A stretch of 64,000 nucleotides of DNA from Candidatus Levyibacteriota bacterium (GTDB lineage Bacteria > Patescibacteriota > Microgenomatia > Levybacterales > UBA12049), in assembly GCA_038254115.1 (NCBI GenBank), contig JBBSGK010000002.1:5589-69588 (forward strand), given 5' to 3'. A program made the position numbers and the translations under genes. The notes beneath the pieces are model-generated. The model did no database searches and was not told the origin of the DNA. It saw nothing but the letters and a program-made list of their open reading frames with translations. This document shows positions 50,381 through 64,000 of the stretch, in pieces (the stretch's first letter is position 1; each line of letters opens with the position of its first letter).

Positions 50381-50656
50381 TTAAATTCTACCAACCGGCT
50401 CTTTGTTTTCGCCTTCAAAAGCATCAATTATCTCAATAATTTTATTTAGCTGCTTGATAGTTTTTTGTGTGGTCTTCTTATCTTGATTAACAACTATTTT
50501 AAATTTAGAAATTCCATGGGTCTTAGTCTCTGAGACATCTAGACTTTCAATGTTTACTTTTCTCCGCAAAAAAAGATCAGAAATGCGGTAAAGCACTCCG
50601 GGTTTGTTTTCAGCAAAAATAGTTATAATACTGTTTTTAGGATCCATATTATTCAA
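50381..50656 (-). CDS. ilvN: Acetolactate synthase small (regulatory, ACT-domain) subunit
   Basis: ACT fold IITIFAENKPGVLYRISDLFLRRKVNIESLDVSETKTHGISKFKIV. Directly downstream of ilvB with an overlap. Confidence 0.8.
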   Translation of the reverse strand: MNNMDPKNSIITIFAENKPGVLYRISDLFLRRKVNIESLDVSETKTHGISKFKIVVNQDKKTTQKTIKQLNKIIEIIDAFEGENKEPVGRI

Positions 50657-52337
50657 GCCTTACATCTGAAACGGACATTCCCGACGGAACCATCGGAAAT
50701 ACATTTTCTTCTTTCCGGACTGTCACCTCCAAAAGCATGGGTTTTTTTGATGCCAATAGCTTCTCAAGTCCGCTTCCAAGCTCCTCTCTTTTATCGACAC
50801 GTACTGCATCAATAAAAAATCCCTTGGCAACCGCAACAAAATCCGGATTTACCAGATCAACAAAAGAATATCGCTTGCCATGAAATAATTGCTGCCATTG
50901 CCTTACCATTCCAAGGAAGTTATTGTTAAGAACAATAATTTTGACGGGGATTTGCTCCTGAAACAGTGTTGCCAGTTCCTGGATATTCATTTGAAAACTC
51001 CCATCCCCTATAATCGCAACAACTTGCCTGTTGGGTGCAGCAACTTTAGCGCCAAGTGCTGCGGGCAAGGCAAATCCCATTGTTCCCAACCCTCCTGATG
51101 TTATAAAACTATCCGGCTTTGCCAACTTGGAATATCTAGCAGCAACCATCTGATGTTGTCCAACATCTGCAACGATAACTGCGTCACCTTTTGTCTTTTC
51201 AGAAAGCATATTTATGGTTTCGGCCATTGTAATCATTCCGGTTGTGGGGTGCATTTCTGCATCTTTGACTATTTTTTGCTCTTTTACATCACACTTCTTG
51301 AATTCTTCAATCCATGAAGAGTGCTTGGATTTTTTCACATGGACTGTAAGAGCGGCAAGCGCCTCTTTTGCATCTGCAATAATCGGAACAGCAACTTCAA
51401 CGTTTTTATTCAATTCTGCAGGGTCAATATCAATATGAATTATTTTAGCCTGCTTGGCATAATTGTCCAGATTGCCCGTAACACGGTCGTCAAACCGCAT
51501 GCCAACTGCAAGTATGACATCCGCTTGGTTGGTTAGGAGATTTGTTCCGTAATTTCCATGCATGCCAAGCATACCAACATATTGCGGATGGTTTGAAGGA
51601 AGCGCTGACAGCCCGTGAAGAGTTGATGCTGCCGGAATATCTGTTTTCTCCAGAAACTTTTTAAGTACCTCTTCAGCCTTTGCAATAAGCACTCCATGAC
51701 CAACTAGCATAAACGGACGCTTTGCTGAGTTAAGAAGTTCTGCTGCTTGTATAATCTGCTTTTCATCGGGTATTATTTGTGGCTTGTAACCCAAAATAGT
51801 AGGAGATTTTTGATAAGTGAAATCCAGTAACTCATTTTGAGCGTTTTTTGTGATTTCAATCATTACCGGTCCCGGCCTTCCGGTTCTGCTTATGTGAAAT
51901 GCTTTTGCAAAGACTTCAGGAATCTCAGAGGCAGTGGTAATCTGATAATTCCATTTTGTAATAGGGGTTGTAACTCCGATGATGTCTGCTTCCTGAAACG
52001 CATCAGTCCCCAGAAGTTTGGCGGGAACCTGTCCGCAAATGCAAACAATAGGCACCGAATCAAGCATTGCGTCAGTTATAGCTGTGATCAGATTGGTCGC
52101 GCCCGGACCCGATGTAACGAGCGCAACCCCGGGCTTACCGGTAATACGCGCATAACCCTCAGCAGCATGTCCTGCGCCTTGTTCATGACGCACAAGGATG
52201 TGACGGATTTTTTCTTTGTAATCATACAAAGCGTCATAAACAGGCATGATTGCCCCTCCGGGGTAACCGAATATTACATCTACTCCTTCTTTCAAAAGAG
52301 ATTCCATTACTGCTTGTGATCCAGTTATTTGTTTCAT
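50649..52337 (-). CDS. ilvB: Acetolactate synthase large subunit (ThDP-dependent)
   Basis: GYPGGAIMPVYDAL..., ThDP motif GDGSFQMNIQELATL...NNNFLGMVRQWQ. I prefer the ATG at 52337 (MKQITGSQ...). The ORF-track GTG at 52349 would sit directly against the attenuator U-tract. Confidence 0.9.
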   Translation of the reverse strand: MKQITGSQAVMESLLKEGVDVIFGYPGGAIMPVYDALYDYKEKIRHILVRHEQGAGHAAEGYARITGKPGVALVTSGPGATNLITAITDAMLDSVPIVCICGQVPAKLLGTDAFQEADIIGVTTPITKWNYQITTASEIPEVFAKAFHISRTGRPGPVMIEITKNAQNELLDFTYQKSPTILGYKPQIIPDEKQIIQAAELLNSAKRPFMLVGHGVLIAKAEEVLKKFLEKTDIPAASTLHGLSALPSNHPQYVGMLGMHGNYGTNLLTNQADVILAVGMRFDDRVTGNLDNYAKQAKIIHIDIDPAELNKNVEVAVPIIADAKEALAALTVHVKKSKHSSWIEEFKKCDVKEQKIVKDAEMHPTTGMITMAETINMLSEKTKGDAVIVADVGQHQMVAARYSKLAKPDSFITSGGLGTMGFALPAALGAKVAAPNRQVVAIIGDGSFQMNIQELATLFQEQIPVKIIVLNNNFLGMVRQWQQLFHGKRYSFVDLVNPDFVAVAKGFFIDAVRVDKREELGSGLEKLLASKKPMLLEVTVRKEENVFPMVPSGMSVSDVRLE

Positions 52338-52349
52338 AAATTTAATCAC

Positions 52350-60582: not shown

Positions 60583-62316
60583 ATGGATAAACAAAATTTG
60601 GAACATCTCAGACATTCTACAGCTCATCTTTTGGCCGCAGCGGTGCTGGGCCTTTATCCTGAAACGAAGCGGGCAATTGGTCCGGCAATTGAATCCGGAT
60701 TTTACTATGATTTTGACTTCAAAGAACCACTAAGCGAAGAAGATTTACCAAAGATAGAAAAGAAAATGGAAGAGATTCTTAAGAGTTGGAATAGTTTTGA
60801 AAAAAAAGAAATAAGCGTTGAGGAAGCAAATAAGGAGTTTAAAAACGAACCATATAAATTGGAACTTATAGAAGAATTTTCAAAAGAAGGAAAGCTTTTA
60901 ACAATTTATAAAAGCGGCGATTATGATGATCTATGCAAAGGGGGACACTCTAAAAATCCGCAAAAGGAAATAGGCGCTTTTAAGTTATTGTCAATTGCGG
61001 GCGCATATTGGAAAGGTTCTGAAAAAAACAAAATGCTCACAAGAATTTATGGAACAGCATTCGCGACAAAAAAAGAGCTGGATGAATATCTTGCGATGCT
61101 TGAGGAGGCTAAAAAGCGGGACCATAGAAAAATTGGAAGAGAGCTGGATCTTTTCGTGATATCTAATTTAGTAGGTGCAGGATTGCCTCTTTTTACACCC
61201 AAGGGGACACTACTTCGTGACTTATTAGCTGAGTTTTCTGAATCGCTTCAAAAAAAGTATGGATATCAAAAAGTTTGGATTCCCCATATTGCCAAAACAG
61301 ATCTCTACAAAAAATCAGGCCACTGGGATAAATTTGGTGATGAATTATTCCTTGTTAAAAGCCAGGAAACAGATGATCAATTTGTTATGAAGCCTATGAA
61401 CTGCCCTCATCATATTCAGATTTATGAATCCCGCCCTCGAAGCTATCGTGAGCTACCTATTCGATATATGGAAACAACTACAGTTTACCGTGACGAAAAA
61501 GCAGGAGAATTATCTGGAATCTCACGCGTGCGCTCCCTTACGCAAGACGACGCACATGCTTTCTGCAAGATGGATCAAATTGAGCAAGAATTTGAAAATA
61601 TAATGACCATGATTAAAACACTGTACGGATCGCTTAACATGAAGTTTAAAGCTCGTTTATCGTTTAGGGATGATTCAGACAAATATCTCGGAGATAAAAA
61701 AAATTGGGATGTTTCGGAAAAAATTATTGAAGACGTTGCAAAAAAACTAGACATAAACTATGTAGCAGTAAAAGGTGAAGCTGCATTTTATGGACCAAAG
61801 ATTGATATCATGGTAGTTGATGCGTTGGGACGCGAATGGCAATGTGCAACTGAACAGCTCGATTTTGTACAGCCAGAGCGGTTTGGAATAAAATATATTG
61901 ATGCAGACGGACAGGAAAAAAATCCGGTTATGATTCACAAAGCCTTGCTCGGATCCATCGAAAGATTTCTGTCTGTTTATATTGAGCATACGAGCGGATC
62001 ATTTCCTACTTGGCTTTCACCTGTGCAAGTTTCAATTCTTGCAATTGCTGACAGACACAATGAATATGCCCAAAAGGTTAATCAACAGTTAAAGGACGCT
62101 GGAATCCGTTCAGAAGTTGATACGAGGTCTGAACGGCTCCAGGCCAAGATAAGAGATGCTGCTTTACAAAAAGTACCATTTATGGGTATAATAGGGGATA
62201 AAGAAACAGACACCAAAGAGGTATCTGTCAGAATTCGTGGCGGAGAAGACTTGGGATCGCTCACTGTTGACTCCTTAATTAATAAGTTACAAGAAAAAAT
62301 TGATAAGAAAATATAA
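60583..62316 (+). CDS. thrS: Threonyl-tRNA synthetase, form lacking the N-terminal TGS domain
   Basis: Starts at the HxxxH editing-domain motif (HSTAHLLAAAV). Class II motifs 2 and 3 (...YRDE..GELSGISRVRSLTQDDAH..., ...GPKIDIMV...). C-terminal anticodon-binding domain. A TATAAT lies 7 nt before the ATG (leaderless). Confidence 0.85.
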   Translation: MDKQNLEHLRHSTAHLLAAAVLGLYPETKRAIGPAIESGFYYDFDFKEPLSEEDLPKIEKKMEEILKSWNSFEKKEISVEEANKEFKNEPYKLELIEEFSKEGKLLTIYKSGDYDDLCKGGHSKNPQKEIGAFKLLSIAGAYWKGSEKNKMLTRIYGTAFATKKELDEYLAMLEEAKKRDHRKIGRELDLFVISNLVGAGLPLFTPKGTLLRDLLAEFSESLQKKYGYQKVWIPHIAKTDLYKKSGHWDKFGDELFLVKSQETDDQFVMKPMNCPHHIQIYESRPRSYRELPIRYMETTTVYRDEKAGELSGISRVRSLTQDDAHAFCKMDQIEQEFENIMTMIKTLYGSLNMKFKARLSFRDDSDKYLGDKKNWDVSEKIIEDVAKKLDINYVAVKGEAAFYGPKIDIMVVDALGREWQCATEQLDFVQPERFGIKYIDADGQEKNPVMIHKALLGSIERFLSVYIEHTSGSFPTWLSPVQVSILAIADRHNEYAQKVNQQLKDAGIRSEVDTRSERLQAKIRDAALQKVPFMGIIGDKETDTKEVSVRIRGGEDLGSLTVDSLINKLQEKIDKKI

Positions 62317-62884
62317 ACCAACTCTCAGGAAAACGTATAGACTCAATCAACGTATTTTTGCGTCACCACTAAGAGTACTGGACGTAGAAGGAAAATTGAT
62401 TGGTGTTCTTTCAAAATTTGAAGCACTAAAACTTGCCCAAGAGCAGGAATTGGATTTGGTCGAGATCGCGCCAAAGGCAAATCCTCCTGTTGCAAAGATA
62501 GTTGATTTTAATAAATTTCTCTATCAACAGGAAAAAAAGAAAAAAGAAGAAAAGAAAAAGGCAAAAGTAAGTGAAACCAAAGAAATAAGACTTGGCCCTT
62601 TTATGTCTGACAATGACTTGCAGGTCATGATAAGACGCGGGAAAGGATTTTTGGAAGAAGGACATAAATTACGGATGGTTGTAAAATTTAGGGGGCGCCA
62701 AATTGTACATCCTGAATTCGGACGGGAGATTGTAAATAAGGTAATAAAATCGCTTGGAAGTCTTTCAAAAGTGGACCGGGAACCGCACTTTGAAGGGAAA
62801 CAATTAGTCACTCTGCTATCAGCAGATAAAGGAAAAAAACATGATGACACCGGATCTCAACAAACTGTAGCAAGTACGGAATAA
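62300..62884 (+). CDS. infC: Translation initiation factor IF-3 (start uncertain; probable internal AUU start near 62354)
   Basis: LIGVLSKFEALKLAQEQELDLVEIAP...IRLGPFMSDNDLQVMIRRGKGFLEEGHKLRMVVKFRGRQIVHPEFG. The first in-frame TTG overlaps the thrS end. IF-3 genes classically use AUU, and an ATT at 62354 would give about 176 aa. Confidence 0.75.
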   Translation: MIRKYKPTLRKTYRLNQRIFASPLRVLDVEGKLIGVLSKFEALKLAQEQELDLVEIAPKANPPVAKIVDFNKFLYQQEKKKKEEKKKAKVSETKEIRLGPFMSDNDLQVMIRRGKGFLEEGHKLRMVVKFRGRQIVHPEFGREIVNKVIKSLGSLSKVDREPHFEGKQLVTLLSADKGKKHDDTGSQQTVASTE

Positions 62885-62902
62885 AATTTATTAAAAATAA
62901 TT

Positions 62903-63115
62903 ATGAAGAAGGCAATGAAAACAAAGCAAAAAGCAAAAGGGTCTGTCAGCAAAAGATTTAAAGTGACCAAAACCGGTAAAGTAAAATTTGCCCATCAATA
63001 TGGCAGTCACAAAAAGCTGCACAAATCAAAAAGCAGAATAAGACGTCAAAAAGAACCGGGTGAGTTGACGGGTGCATTTGCAAAAAAAGTCAAACAAATG
63101 CTGGGAGTGGCGTAG
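62903..63115 (+). CDS. rpmI: Ribosomal protein L35
   Basis: MKTKQKAKGSVSKRFKVTKTGKVKFAHQYGSHKK matches the basic L35 family signature. Confidence 0.85.
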   Translation: MKKAMKTKQKAKGSVSKRFKVTKTGKVKFAHQYGSHKKLHKSKSRIRRQKEPGELTGAFAKKVKQMLGVA

Positions 63116-63195
63116 GAGAAGCTTTTAGCTTATAGCAGCTAGCATCTAGTTTTATCTAGACGCTAGACGCTAATATACTAGATGCTAATAAAATT

Positions 63196-63546
63196 ATGGC
63201 AAGAATTAAAAGAGGAACTGTATCAAAAAGAAGACACAACAAATTGTTGGATCTGACAAAGGGCTTCAGGGGAACAAAAAGTACCCTTGTGAGAGAAGCA
63301 AAAGCAGCCAGTCTTCATGCCGGCCAATACGCGTACAACGGCCGGAAAGAGCGGAAAAGTGATTTCCGGTCTCTCTGGATCATCCGGATTGGAGAAGCTG
63401 CCAAACAACAGGGCATATCATACAGCGTTTTTATTAACAAACTTAAAAAAGCCAATATCGAGCTTGACCGGAAAATCCTAAGCAGCTTAGTTGCGGAAGA
63501 TCCCGCAGCTTTTAAGCAAGTTGTTGACTTAGCCAAAAAAGTGTAG
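63196..63546 (+). CDS. rplT: Ribosomal protein L20
   Basis: MARIKRGTVSKRRHNKLLDLTKGFRG... matches the canonical L20 N-terminus. Confidence 0.9.
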   Translation: MARIKRGTVSKRRHNKLLDLTKGFRGTKSTLVREAKAASLHAGQYAYNGRKERKSDFRSLWIIRIGEAAKQQGISYSVFINKLKKANIELDRKILSSLVAEDPAAFKQVVDLAKKV

Positions 63547-63559
63547 TATAAATAAGCCT

Positions 63560-63637
63560 ATGAGCTCGTCAGAACAGAAAAATTGGTTTTACTTTTACTT
63601 TACTTCCCAATCCGGGAGGTTGAGTCGCGGTTTATAA
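63560..63637 (+). CDS. Aromatic-rich leader peptide MSSSEQKNWFYFYFTSQSGRLSRGL (aroB attenuator)
   Basis: 25 codons with six consecutive aromatic residues (WFYFYF). A TTGACT-N17-TATAAA promoter (63524-63552) ends 7 nt before the ATG. Codons 19-21 (GGGAGGTT) are complementary to ACCUCCC of the downstream terminator. Confidence 0.6.
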   Translation: MSSSEQKNWFYFYFTSQSGRLSRGL

Positions 63638-63664
63638 CTAAAAGTAAATAAACCAAAACACAAC

Positions 63665-63688
63665 ACCTCCCACAAGGGAGGTTTTTTT
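63665..63688 (+). terminator. Intrinsic terminator ACCUCCC-ACAA-GGGAGGU + U7 (aroB attenuator; also terminates rplT)
   Basis: Read directly: acacctcccacaagggaggttttttt. Confidence 0.75.
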
Positions 63689-63778
63689 ATGCAAAAATCA
63701 TTAACACAGGAAGAATTTGATATACTGATGAAAGAAACGAAGTTGATTTCCAAAGATCCTGCATATATACAAATATGA
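63689..63778 (+). CDS. 29-codon upstream ORF (MQKSLTQEEFDILMKETKLISKDPAYIQI) translationally coupled to aroB by an ATGA overlap
   Basis: Starts directly after the terminator U-tract. Its TGA stop overlaps the aroB ATG. No SD precedes aroB. Confidence 0.4.
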   Translation: MQKSLTQEEFDILMKETKLISKDPAYIQI

Positions 63779-64000
63779 AAACTATAAATGTCACATTTCA
63801 AGAAGCTGAAAATAAAAAATATTCTATCATTATTGGGAATGGTCTTATTGAAAAAATCTCGACAGTTTTTGATTTTGCAGGATACTCTAAAGCGTTGATA
63901 GTCACCGACGATAATATCAAACCTCTTTTGCTTGAAAAGCTTTCGAAAGCTTTAAAGATTGACTCAGTCTCTTTCATCTTGCCACCGGGAGAGAATGAAA
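63775..64000 (+). CDS. aroB: 3-dehydroquinate synthase, N-terminal part (continues beyond window end)
   Basis: MKTINVTFQEAENKKYSIIIGNGLIEKI...ALIVTDDNIKPLLLEKL is the AroB N-terminal Rossmann region. No stop before 64000. Confidence 0.7.
   Translation, partial: MKTINVTFQEAENKKYSIIIGNGLIEKISTVFDFAGYSKALIVTDDNIKPLLLEKLSKALKIDSVSFILPPGENE

Follow-up and report, generated by a model that had tools for sequence, protein, structure and literature searches.

The stretch of DNA analysed here, 64,000 nt of contig JBBSGK010000002.1 from a Candidatus Levyibacteriota bacterium (hereafter the window), carries between the ribosomal protein gene rplT and the shikimate-pathway gene aroB a compact element that is very probably a ribosome-mediated attenuator. 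Judged by its sequence and by modelled folding, it would sense charged aromatic tRNAs and gate a shikimate-pathway operon. A preliminary description of this DNA had proposed an attenuator with a mixed Trp/Phe/Tyr leader peptide in front of a shikimate gene, and that proposal is borne out by the conservation of leader, promoter and terminator/antiterminator alternatives across Levybacteria/Microgenomates. The element comprises a short leader open reading frame (ORF) with six consecutive Trp, Phe or Tyr codons, four segments capable of alternative pairing, and an intrinsic terminator that separates the leader from the structural genes and is kept in relatives. Coordinates are collected in Table 1.

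Relatives were sampled by a scan of species-representative genomes with RplT, which gave 80 loci (designated L001 onwards). The top matches, L001 and L002, have 93% and 91% RplT identity; the best-matching loci are labelled Candidatus Levybacteria/Levyibacteriota and other Microgenomates/Patescibacteria. An RplT scan of metagenomes, in which we sought a nearer relative that would show the region downstream of aroB and the fate of DAHP synthase, contributed 80 further loci for a total of 160, with a best identity of 80% and none nearer than L001 or L002. A lookup of the exact RplT protein, meant to extend the contig, matched no record. Conservation counts refer to the 67 genome loci examined, the window among them.

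A short ORF with 5–7 aromatic residues among seven consecutive ones lies just 3′ of rplT in 36 of these 67 loci, and in most loci carrying one it starts 1–25 nt past the rplT stop codon. Genome and metagenome loci together yielded 57 distinct leader peptides of 15–34 amino acids, each with an aromatic block. In this block the aromatic residues are retained, but their order and codons differ (YFWFYF, WFYFYF, FFYFYF, YYWFTYF and others), as predicted by selection at the level of translation. Loci in which pheS lies within ~130 nt of the rplT stop were found to have no leader, and none was seen in the Dojkabacteria, Saccharibacteria and alphaproteobacterial loci that were fetched.

The leader is preceded by a well-conserved promoter sequence. 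TTGAC[A/T/G], a spacer of exactly 17 nt and TAnnnT are kept in approximately 27 of 36 loci, with the TTGAC sitting in Val-Asp codons (GTT GAC) near the end of rplT whose synonymous positions are fixed across loci, and with the TAnnnT box beginning at, or shortly past, the rplT stop. The distance from the end of the –10 box to the leader ATG is 7 nt in the window and 6–13 nt across loci, and the leader ATG has no Shine–Dalgarno (SD) sequence. These are also the properties of normal gene starts in this genome: an SD-like GGAG or GAGG at positions –21 to –4 was found for only 3 of 53 genes in the window, while a near-consensus TATAAT ends 4–11 nt upstream of the start codon in 23 of 51, with a peak at 6–7 nt. 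Because its –10 box is close to the ATG and no SD is present, as at normal gene starts here, we infer that the leader mRNA is leaderless or nearly so, and most mRNAs of this genome appear to be leaderless as well. Our literature searches found no paper on leaderless mRNAs in Patescibacteria. Conservation of the promoter sequence likewise points to promoter activity and to a transcription start near the leader ATG. That aroB lacks its own SD, as stated in the preliminary description, is true but uninformative as evidence because the genome hardly uses SDs.

The terminator, ACCUCCC-ACAA-GGGAGGU followed by U7, is a 7-bp stem with 6 G-C pairs and was also detected by a terminator scan; in relatives ACCUCCC-N3-5-GGGAGGU-U7 recurs ~100–135 nt past the rplT stop. 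Its 5′ arm (segment 3) is complementary to a GGGAGGU within the leader (segment 2), which can also pair with segment 1 to form the anti-antiterminator hairpin P2. In the window the 2:3 duplex has a predicted energy of –12.9 kcal/mol (z = –4.0), and in 29 of the 32 loci that could be scored this antiterminator duplex has a z-score of –2.4 to –8.4 against shuffled sequences. The whole 149-nt region also folds more stably than its shuffles (z = –3.2). The window element reaches 102 bits with a covariance model of hairpin 1:2 and the terminator that was trained on relatives, and the model has matches at E < 1e-5 to 32 elements in genome loci and 29 more in metagenome loci.

Pairing was counted on a 32-element alignment derived from this model, as MAFFT misaligned the terminator arm in several sequences. 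P2 and the terminator are paired in 91.5% of alignment cells, compared with 43–73% when the partner is slid; for the 2:3 pairs, an antiterminator that is absent from the model, the corresponding values are 86.6% and 36–67%. Segment 2 and the terminator core vary together in L028 (CGGGGUUAU:AUAACCCCG), L009 (GGGGUUCG:CGAACCCC) and L066. The clearest evidence of 2:3 co-variation is the complementarity of the flanks outside these cores: the 12 nt 3′ of segment 2 pair with the 14 nt 5′ of segment 3 at –6.1 kcal/mol when cognate and –3.9 kcal/mol when non-cognate, with none of 5000 permutations as low. A further stem, P1, is formed between the aromatic codons and a region past the leader stop codon. 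Its pairing GGUUUUAC:GUAAAACC recurs in relatives and has modest support from co-variation (cognate –8.4 versus non-cognate –7.7 kcal/mol, permutation p = 0.009).

The effect of a ribosome on these alternatives was modelled by folding transcripts truncated before segment 4 with a 30-nt ribosome footprint, an approach adopted because equilibrium folding of the full leader with footprints gave mixed results. Free truncated window RNA forms P1 and hairpin 1:2, and its segment 3 has no partner. When the A site is placed at any one of the six aromatic codons, the 2:3 antiterminator forms instead (–20.1 kcal/mol). For the 31 loci folded in this way, the paired fraction of segment 3 is 0.89 with the ribosome stalled versus 0.32 with the ribosome at the leader stop. 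In silico, then, a ribosome on the regulatory codons favours an antiterminator that excludes the terminator.

Much of this anatomy had been given beforehand and was confirmed at its coordinates: the promoter inside the 3′ end of rplT 7 nt before the ATG, the six-codon aromatic run, the terminator, and the 29-codon ORF that directly follows the U-tract and whose TGA overlaps the aroB ATG. The pairing of the leader GGGAGGU with ACCUCCC, likewise described earlier, proves to co-vary in relatives. RNA structure prediction and a survey of leader conservation, which the preliminary description had suggested as checks, both came out in favour of its proposal.

Table 1. Positions of the aromatic attenuator and adjoining genes in the 64,000-nt window
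Feature	Position	Strand	Description	Evidence
thrS	60583-62316	+	followed by infC and rpmI, which lie between thrS and rplT (Pfam)	Pfam
rplT	63196-63546	+	stop TAG 63544-63546	Pfam
–35 box	63524-63529	+	TTGACT; within final rplT codons (Val-Asp-Leu)	
–10 box	63547-63552	+	TATAAA; 17-nt spacer from –35; begins one base past rplT stop	
Leader ORF	63560-63637	+	25 codons and stop, MSSSEQKNWFYFYFTSQSGRLSRGL	ORF translation
P1, 5′ strand	63583-63596	+	UUGGUUU and UACUUUU; overlaps aromatic codons	centroid and minimum free energy folds
Regulatory codons	63584-63601	+	UGG UUU UAC UUU UAC UUU (W F Y F Y F); proposed ribosome stall site	
Segment 1	63602-63608	+	ACUUCCC; 5′ arm of anti-antiterminator hairpin P2	begins one base after last aromatic codon (63601)
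Segment 2	63614-63620	+	GGGAGGU; pairs with segment 1 (P2) or segment 3 (antiterminator)	complementarity
P1, 3′ strand	63640-63656	+	AAAAGUA..AAACCAA; past leader stop codon	folding
Segment 3	63665-63671	+	ACCUCCC; terminator 5′ arm	hairpin scan, pairing
Segment 4	63676-63682	+	GGGAGGU; terminator 3′ arm; GGGAGG also SD-like, 7 nt 5′ of ATG 63689	
U-tract	63683-63688	+	of intrinsic terminator (63665-63688); T7 run 63682-63688	sequence, terminator scan
29-codon ORF	63689-63778	+	MQKSLTQEEFDILMKETKLISKDPAYIQI; TGA overlaps aroB ATG (ATGA, 63775-63778)	
aroB, 5′ part	63775-64000	+	3-dehydroquinate synthase; cut at window end	tblastn, relatives' AroB

In the mechanism that we propose, a sigma-70-type promoter overlapping the end of rplT would start the mRNA at the leader ATG or no more than a few bases from it, and readthrough transcripts from rplT would pass into the same attenuator. 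When aromatic amino acids are plentiful, the ribosome would cross the 25-codon leader without a pause, segment 1 would pair with segment 2, and the aromatic codons would pair with AAACCAA/AAAAGUA to form P1. Segment 3 would then be free to pair with segment 4, and transcription would end in the U7 tract. When Trp-, Phe- or Tyr-tRNA is scarce, the ribosome would stall on UGG UUU UAC UUU UAC UUU and melt P1; since segment 1 begins one base after the aromatic codons, the stalled ribosome would also cover it. Segment 2 could then capture segment 3 once it is made, blocking the terminator and allowing RNA polymerase to proceed. In the readthrough RNA, segment 4 would be single-stranded and its GGGAGG could act as the ribosome-binding site for the ATG at 63689, with translation of the 29-codon ORF ending at ATGA and the ribosomes being handed to aroB.

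Several points weigh against this mechanism. The antiterminator core of the window is only 7 bp long and thermodynamically weaker than the terminator, and with all four segments at equilibrium the terminator wins at most stall positions. The switch must for this reason be kinetic, like the attenuator of the trp operon in E. coli. When the ribosome sits at the leader stop codon, 16 nt past segment 2 of the window, that segment stays uncovered, and termination under plenty would therefore require hairpin 1:2 to refold upstream of the ribosome. At equilibrium the antiterminator is also the fold that the truncated transcript of many relatives adopts when no ribosome translates it (mean 0.66). The near-invariance of the GGGAGG/CCUCCC cores leaves few strictly compensatory changes. 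DAHP synthase, which heads the operon in relatives, is missing behind the element of the window, and the rest of the 64 kb did not yield it either. Start of transcription, ribosome stalling and response to aromatic supply are predictions from the features above. Finally, the idea of the preliminary description that a mixed leader would suit a common-pathway gene held only in part. It fits the occurrence of Trp in 16 of 17 leaders ahead of aro operons versus 7 of 19 ahead of pheST alone (Fisher p = 4e-4, phylogeny ignored), but mixed Trp/Tyr/Phe leaders are also found ahead of pheST alone, and leader composition is thus not strictly matched to the downstream genes.

In relatives the position of the start codon directly past the U-tract is conserved as GGGAGG-U7-ATG/GTG. 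In L011, L017, L022 and L028 the first enzyme gene starts at the post-terminator ATG, while elsewhere the post-terminator start opens ORFs of 2–14 codons that overlap or abut the first gene. We infer that the terminator 3′ arm serves as the SD of the start at 63689, one of very few SD-like sites here; this is understandable, since leaderless initiation is not available to a gene preceded by a leader. The same features would suit an attenuator working mainly at translation, in which the 3:4 hairpin hides the GGGAGG of the ORF at 63689 and 2:3 pairing frees it, with termination secondary or inefficient. Under such control the conserved GGGAGG-U7-AUG/GUG, with an AUG that starts the first enzyme gene in four relatives, would be expected, and so would a GGGAGG that is among only 3 SD-like sites in 53 genes, given that the gene downstream of the leader presumably needs such a site. 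We nevertheless consider it unlikely that translation is the main level of control. A perfect 7-bp GC-rich stem with an unbroken U7–U9 is present in nearly all loci and would be unneeded for sequestration alone, and the E. coli counterpart, pheM/pheST, is described as acting by transcription termination (Springer et al. 1985, as cited in PMC11802643). Both modes could operate together, and attenuation by termination, the explanation that we prefer, already includes exposure of the SD.

The 29-codon ORF itself was seen in the preliminary description as adding a second layer of control to aroB. What stands of this are its conserved start, the putative SD in the terminator arm and its coupling to aroB; the ORF is better regarded as a relay ORF or possible relic than as a demonstrated layer. 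Most likely it relays ribosomes to aroB. A stronger form of the earlier idea, that it is a separate regulatory upstream ORF and a second sensor whose translation or peptide modulates aroB, could appeal to the overlap of its stop with the aroB start (ATGA) and to a length exceeding that of the 2–14-codon relay ORFs of relatives. However, it has no run of regulatory codons, its peptide is unconserved in any relative, the same start codon in relatives opens the first enzyme gene or very short unrelated ORFs, and ATGA is the ordinary 4-nt overlap joining an upstream gene to aroB in L003, L005, L011, L017 and L061, so that we regard a second sensor as very improbable. A weak likeness of the peptide to DAHP synthase also hints at a relic and not at a designed sensor. 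The comparison with DAHP synthase C-termini aligns QQLTWEQFDxLVK with QKSLTQEEFDILMK. A hidden Markov model of eight DAHP synthases aligns the peptide to the C-terminus at 3.4 bits, a score reached by 5 of 3000 shuffles; a broader model aligns it to an internal segment instead, and in tblastn every match had E ≥ 1. Origin of the ORF as a DAHP synthase relic left by an in-frame deletion is possible but unproven.

The possibility, raised in its simplest form in the preliminary description, that the hairpin is simply the terminator of thrS-infC-rpmI-rplT, with the small ORF and the complementary segment fortuitous and aroB expressed from its own signals, draws on the location of the hairpin and U7 ~120 nt past the rplT stop without a separate rplT terminator, and on the fact that the hairpin, when formed, will end rplT transcripts, yet it is scarcely credible given that leader ORF, aromatic block and promoter (at synonymous sites of rplT) are kept in dozens of genomes, that segment 2 follows changes in the terminator arm, that the element is absent where pheS is directly 3′ of rplT, and that aroB has neither a promoter-like –10 box upstream nor a spacer (ATGA overlap). 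Strong terminators are also rare at gene ends here: a stringent scan found only 7 in 64 kb, two of them parts of attenuators, which makes the attenuator reading much likelier than that of a terminator alone.

The genes found behind the element make or charge the amino acids that it would sense: aroB in the window, and shikimate, Phe-branch and pheST genes in relatives. The window ends inside aroB, at 64000, and the identity of this gene rests on tblastn with relatives, since a homologue search with the 75-residue AroB fragment returned no word-sharing candidate. The 75 N-terminal residues have 32–46% identity to the N-termini of relatives' AroB (E 1e-9 to 7e-16). In Pfam the fragment alone gave just a weak Fe-ADH match; the full-length AroB of L001 has the DHQ_synthase and DHQS_C domains. 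The closest relative, L001, carries DAHP synthase-aroB-aroA-aroK-aroE-aroD-aroC behind the element. Across the 160 loci three downstream classes were distinguished: pheS-pheT alone; pheST preceded by Phe-branch genes (chorismate mutase, aminotransferase, prephenate dehydratase); and a complete shikimate operon, in which a PfkB-family kinase gene frequently comes first. Operons of the third class run on into chorismate mutase in L085, L091, L095 and L101, with prephenate dehydratase as a further member in L091 and L095. A search of the 64-kb window for DAHP synthase, pheS, pheT and pheA found none of them; DAHP synthase is either elsewhere in the genome, or the entry step of the pathway has been lost.

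Two further features of these loci were observed. A PfkB-family sugar kinase gene (PF00294) stands first behind the attenuator in L003 (6498-7316), L005 (3525-4487), L010 (3670-4581), L017, L018, L085 and L101, where it precedes a DAHP-synthase-like protein of ~310–320 amino acids and aroB in operons that also bear aroK. Second pheL-like or Phe-type leaders lie further downstream in L002 (6936-7042), L016 (7360), L030 (7645), L054 (4535), L025 (6947), L020 (10477) and L037 (6576). That of L002, MKNLIKTNAFYFTFAKRG, is directly 5′ of the prephenate dehydratase gene, and that of L037 reads MQKLRKINLFFFTFA. Some relatives may thus carry two aromatic attenuators in series. On the other side of the element, thrS-infC-rpmI-rplT make up the last 3.5 kb of the window, as confirmed by Pfam. 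CTAG-rich direct repeats (..GCTAGCATCTAG..TCTAGACGCTAGACGCTAATATACTAGATGCTAA..) occupy the rpmI-rplT spacer (63116-63195) and might be an operator or RNA element of the ribosomal-protein genes.

Two other candidate attenuators, of the same design as the aromatic element and counting in favour of the mechanism proposed for it, were noted on the minus strand of the window. In the first (44993-44851), TTGACG (44993-44988), 17 nt and TATTAT (44970-44965) precede a Leu-rich leader, MNKRQLLNLTLLTV (44955-44911), and the terminator CCCCGC-TCA-GCGGGG (44876-44862) with U8, directly followed by a start codon. Behind it lie an FTR1-like ORF and then leuA, leuC, leuD and leuB (Pfam). The covariance model of the aromatic element matches it weakly (26.9 bits). 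In the second (52487-52347), TTGACT (52487-52482), 17 nt and TACAAT (52464-52459) are followed by the Ile/Leu/Val leader MKKILITVVLLVAH (52446-52402) and the hairpin CCGCC-AAAUA-GGCGG with U7, directly 5′ of the GTG of ilvB (acetolactate synthase large subunit, 50649-52349); ilvC, ilvD and ilvE (class IV aminotransferase) come after ilvB. Leader-peptide attenuation would then regulate at least three amino-acid pathways in this genome (aromatic, leucine and branched-chain). In relatives the covariance model also matches, on the same strand, L032:121-242, L016:2504-2639, L030:2244-2359, L031:856-983, L059:378-544, L020:3313-3444 and L053:1027-1164. These have Ile/Leu/Val-rich leaders (e.g. MFITSANNSIIIINSLREVLFV, MKRSFNLIITVLNSLTGGRSS) on a GGGAGG/CCUCCC-U7-ATG scaffold. 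A scaffold shared by differing leaders suggests a reusable attenuator cassette.

To our knowledge, leader-peptide attenuation has been documented mainly in Proteobacteria and in a few Actinobacteria, and our search of the literature for reports from the Candidate Phyla Radiation (CPR) gave none. With the sequence signature described here, regulation and the starts of operons could be annotated in CPR genomes. The loci also form a natural series, with one attenuator placed over pheST, Phe-branch genes or the whole shikimate pathway, that may be useful for studies of regulon rewiring, and the combination of a leaderless leader ORF with a terminator-embedded SD offers a test case for coupled transcriptional and translational control.

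Among known systems the element most resembles the pheM/pheST attenuator of E. coli. The Rfam Phe_leader family (RF01859) aligns end to end over 63570-63690 with 37.8 bits (E = 3.6e-4), below its gathering score of 55 bits, and at the gathering threshold 12 related loci gave tRNAs only and no Phe_leader. The E. coli pheM leader scores 75 bits with this family and in turn 32.6 bits (E = 3e-4) with the covariance model of the CPR elements, so the model matches are reciprocal and both below threshold. P1 resembles the long outer stem of the Phe_leader consensus. T-box, riboswitch and small RNA readings were rejected, as no credible Rfam match besides Phe_leader was obtained; the covariance model of the T-box, which in Firmicutes is the common RNA regulator of aromatic and aminoacyl-tRNA synthetase genes, had no match at E ≤ 10 in 62000-64000. 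Both the pheM element and that of the window adjoin the 3′ end of rplT in a thrS-infC-rpmI-rplT cluster and have their own promoter at or past the rplT end, and pheST follows the element in many relatives of the window. Both leaders end in an aromatic run with Ser/Thr (..FRFFFYFST in E. coli, ..WFYFYFTS in the window). The segments correspond as well, with AGGAGGCU / AGCCUCC / GGAGGCU and U7 in E. coli and GGGAGGU / ACCUCCC / GGGAGGU and U7 in the window; read side by side, E. coli UUUUACUUUAGCACCUGAAUCCAGGAGGCU ... AGCCUCCCAGUGGAGGCU-U7 follows the same polypurine/polypyrimidine logic. Differences are found in the genes controlled and in the starts of transcription and translation. The element of the window is followed by the 29-codon ORF and aroB, and in relatives by a whole shikimate operon, in place of pheST. 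Its leader mixes Trp, Tyr and Phe, its promoter overlaps the rplT stop without a separate rplT terminator, its leader mRNA appears leaderless and without an SD, its second start codon adjoins the U-tract with the terminator arm probably doubling as SD, and its host is a CPR bacterium and not a gammaproteobacterium.

By this analogy the rplT-proximal element is best seen as this lineage's version of the pheM/pheST attenuator, a Microgenomates counterpart in which Phe-branch and shikimate operons would have been placed between attenuator and pheST. A broader reading joins four propositions: homology between the Proteobacteria and Microgenomates elements, a codon-swapped cassette, the terminator arm as sole ribosome-binding site, and capture of a shikimate operon upstream of pheST. 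We put this forward tentatively, as it is rather doubtful that all four hold together. If the homology were true, the element would be an ancient or laterally shared cis-regulatory module. If the cassette were true, the leaderless leader ORF, GGGAGG/CCUCCC, U7 and start codon would be reused with only the leader codons swapped (aromatic, Leu and Ile/Leu/Val in the window). If the terminator arm held the sole ribosome-binding site, in a genome otherwise devoid of SDs, a single RNA switch would control transcription and translation at once.

The E. coli pheL/pheA and trpL/trp attenuators share with the element the tandem regulatory codons, the 1:2 / 2:3 / 3:4 alternatives and the intrinsic terminator, but have single-amino-acid leaders and control terminal-branch genes. 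Leaders of the pheL type, ending in FFFTFA, occur in some relatives (e.g. L013, L031, L037, L111, L115), and the leader of the window is not of this type. Closer in what it controls is the aroR leader of Corynebacterium glutamicum, which precedes the aroF (DAHP synthase) operon (Neshat et al. 2014, via PMC11802643; predicted in PMC4046766). It too is a mixed aromatic (Phe-Tyr-Phe) leader-peptide attenuator governing entry to the shikimate common pathway, and is a direct precedent for a mixed-aromatic leader before a shikimate gene. Compared by its published description, aroR differs in having just three aromatic codons and no Trp, in lying elsewhere than 3′ of rplT and in belonging to another phylum; it is reported in PMC11802643 to respond to Phe and not to Tyr. 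The preliminary description had held that attenuation of aroB is not the textbook case. With a counterpart in pheM/pheST and a direct precedent in aroR-aroF, the element is less removed from the textbook than was claimed, although the genes behind it do differ from those of pheM/pheST. What is new is the host lineage, the genes controlled, the probably leaderless leader and the putative SD in the terminator arm, while the mechanism is not new.

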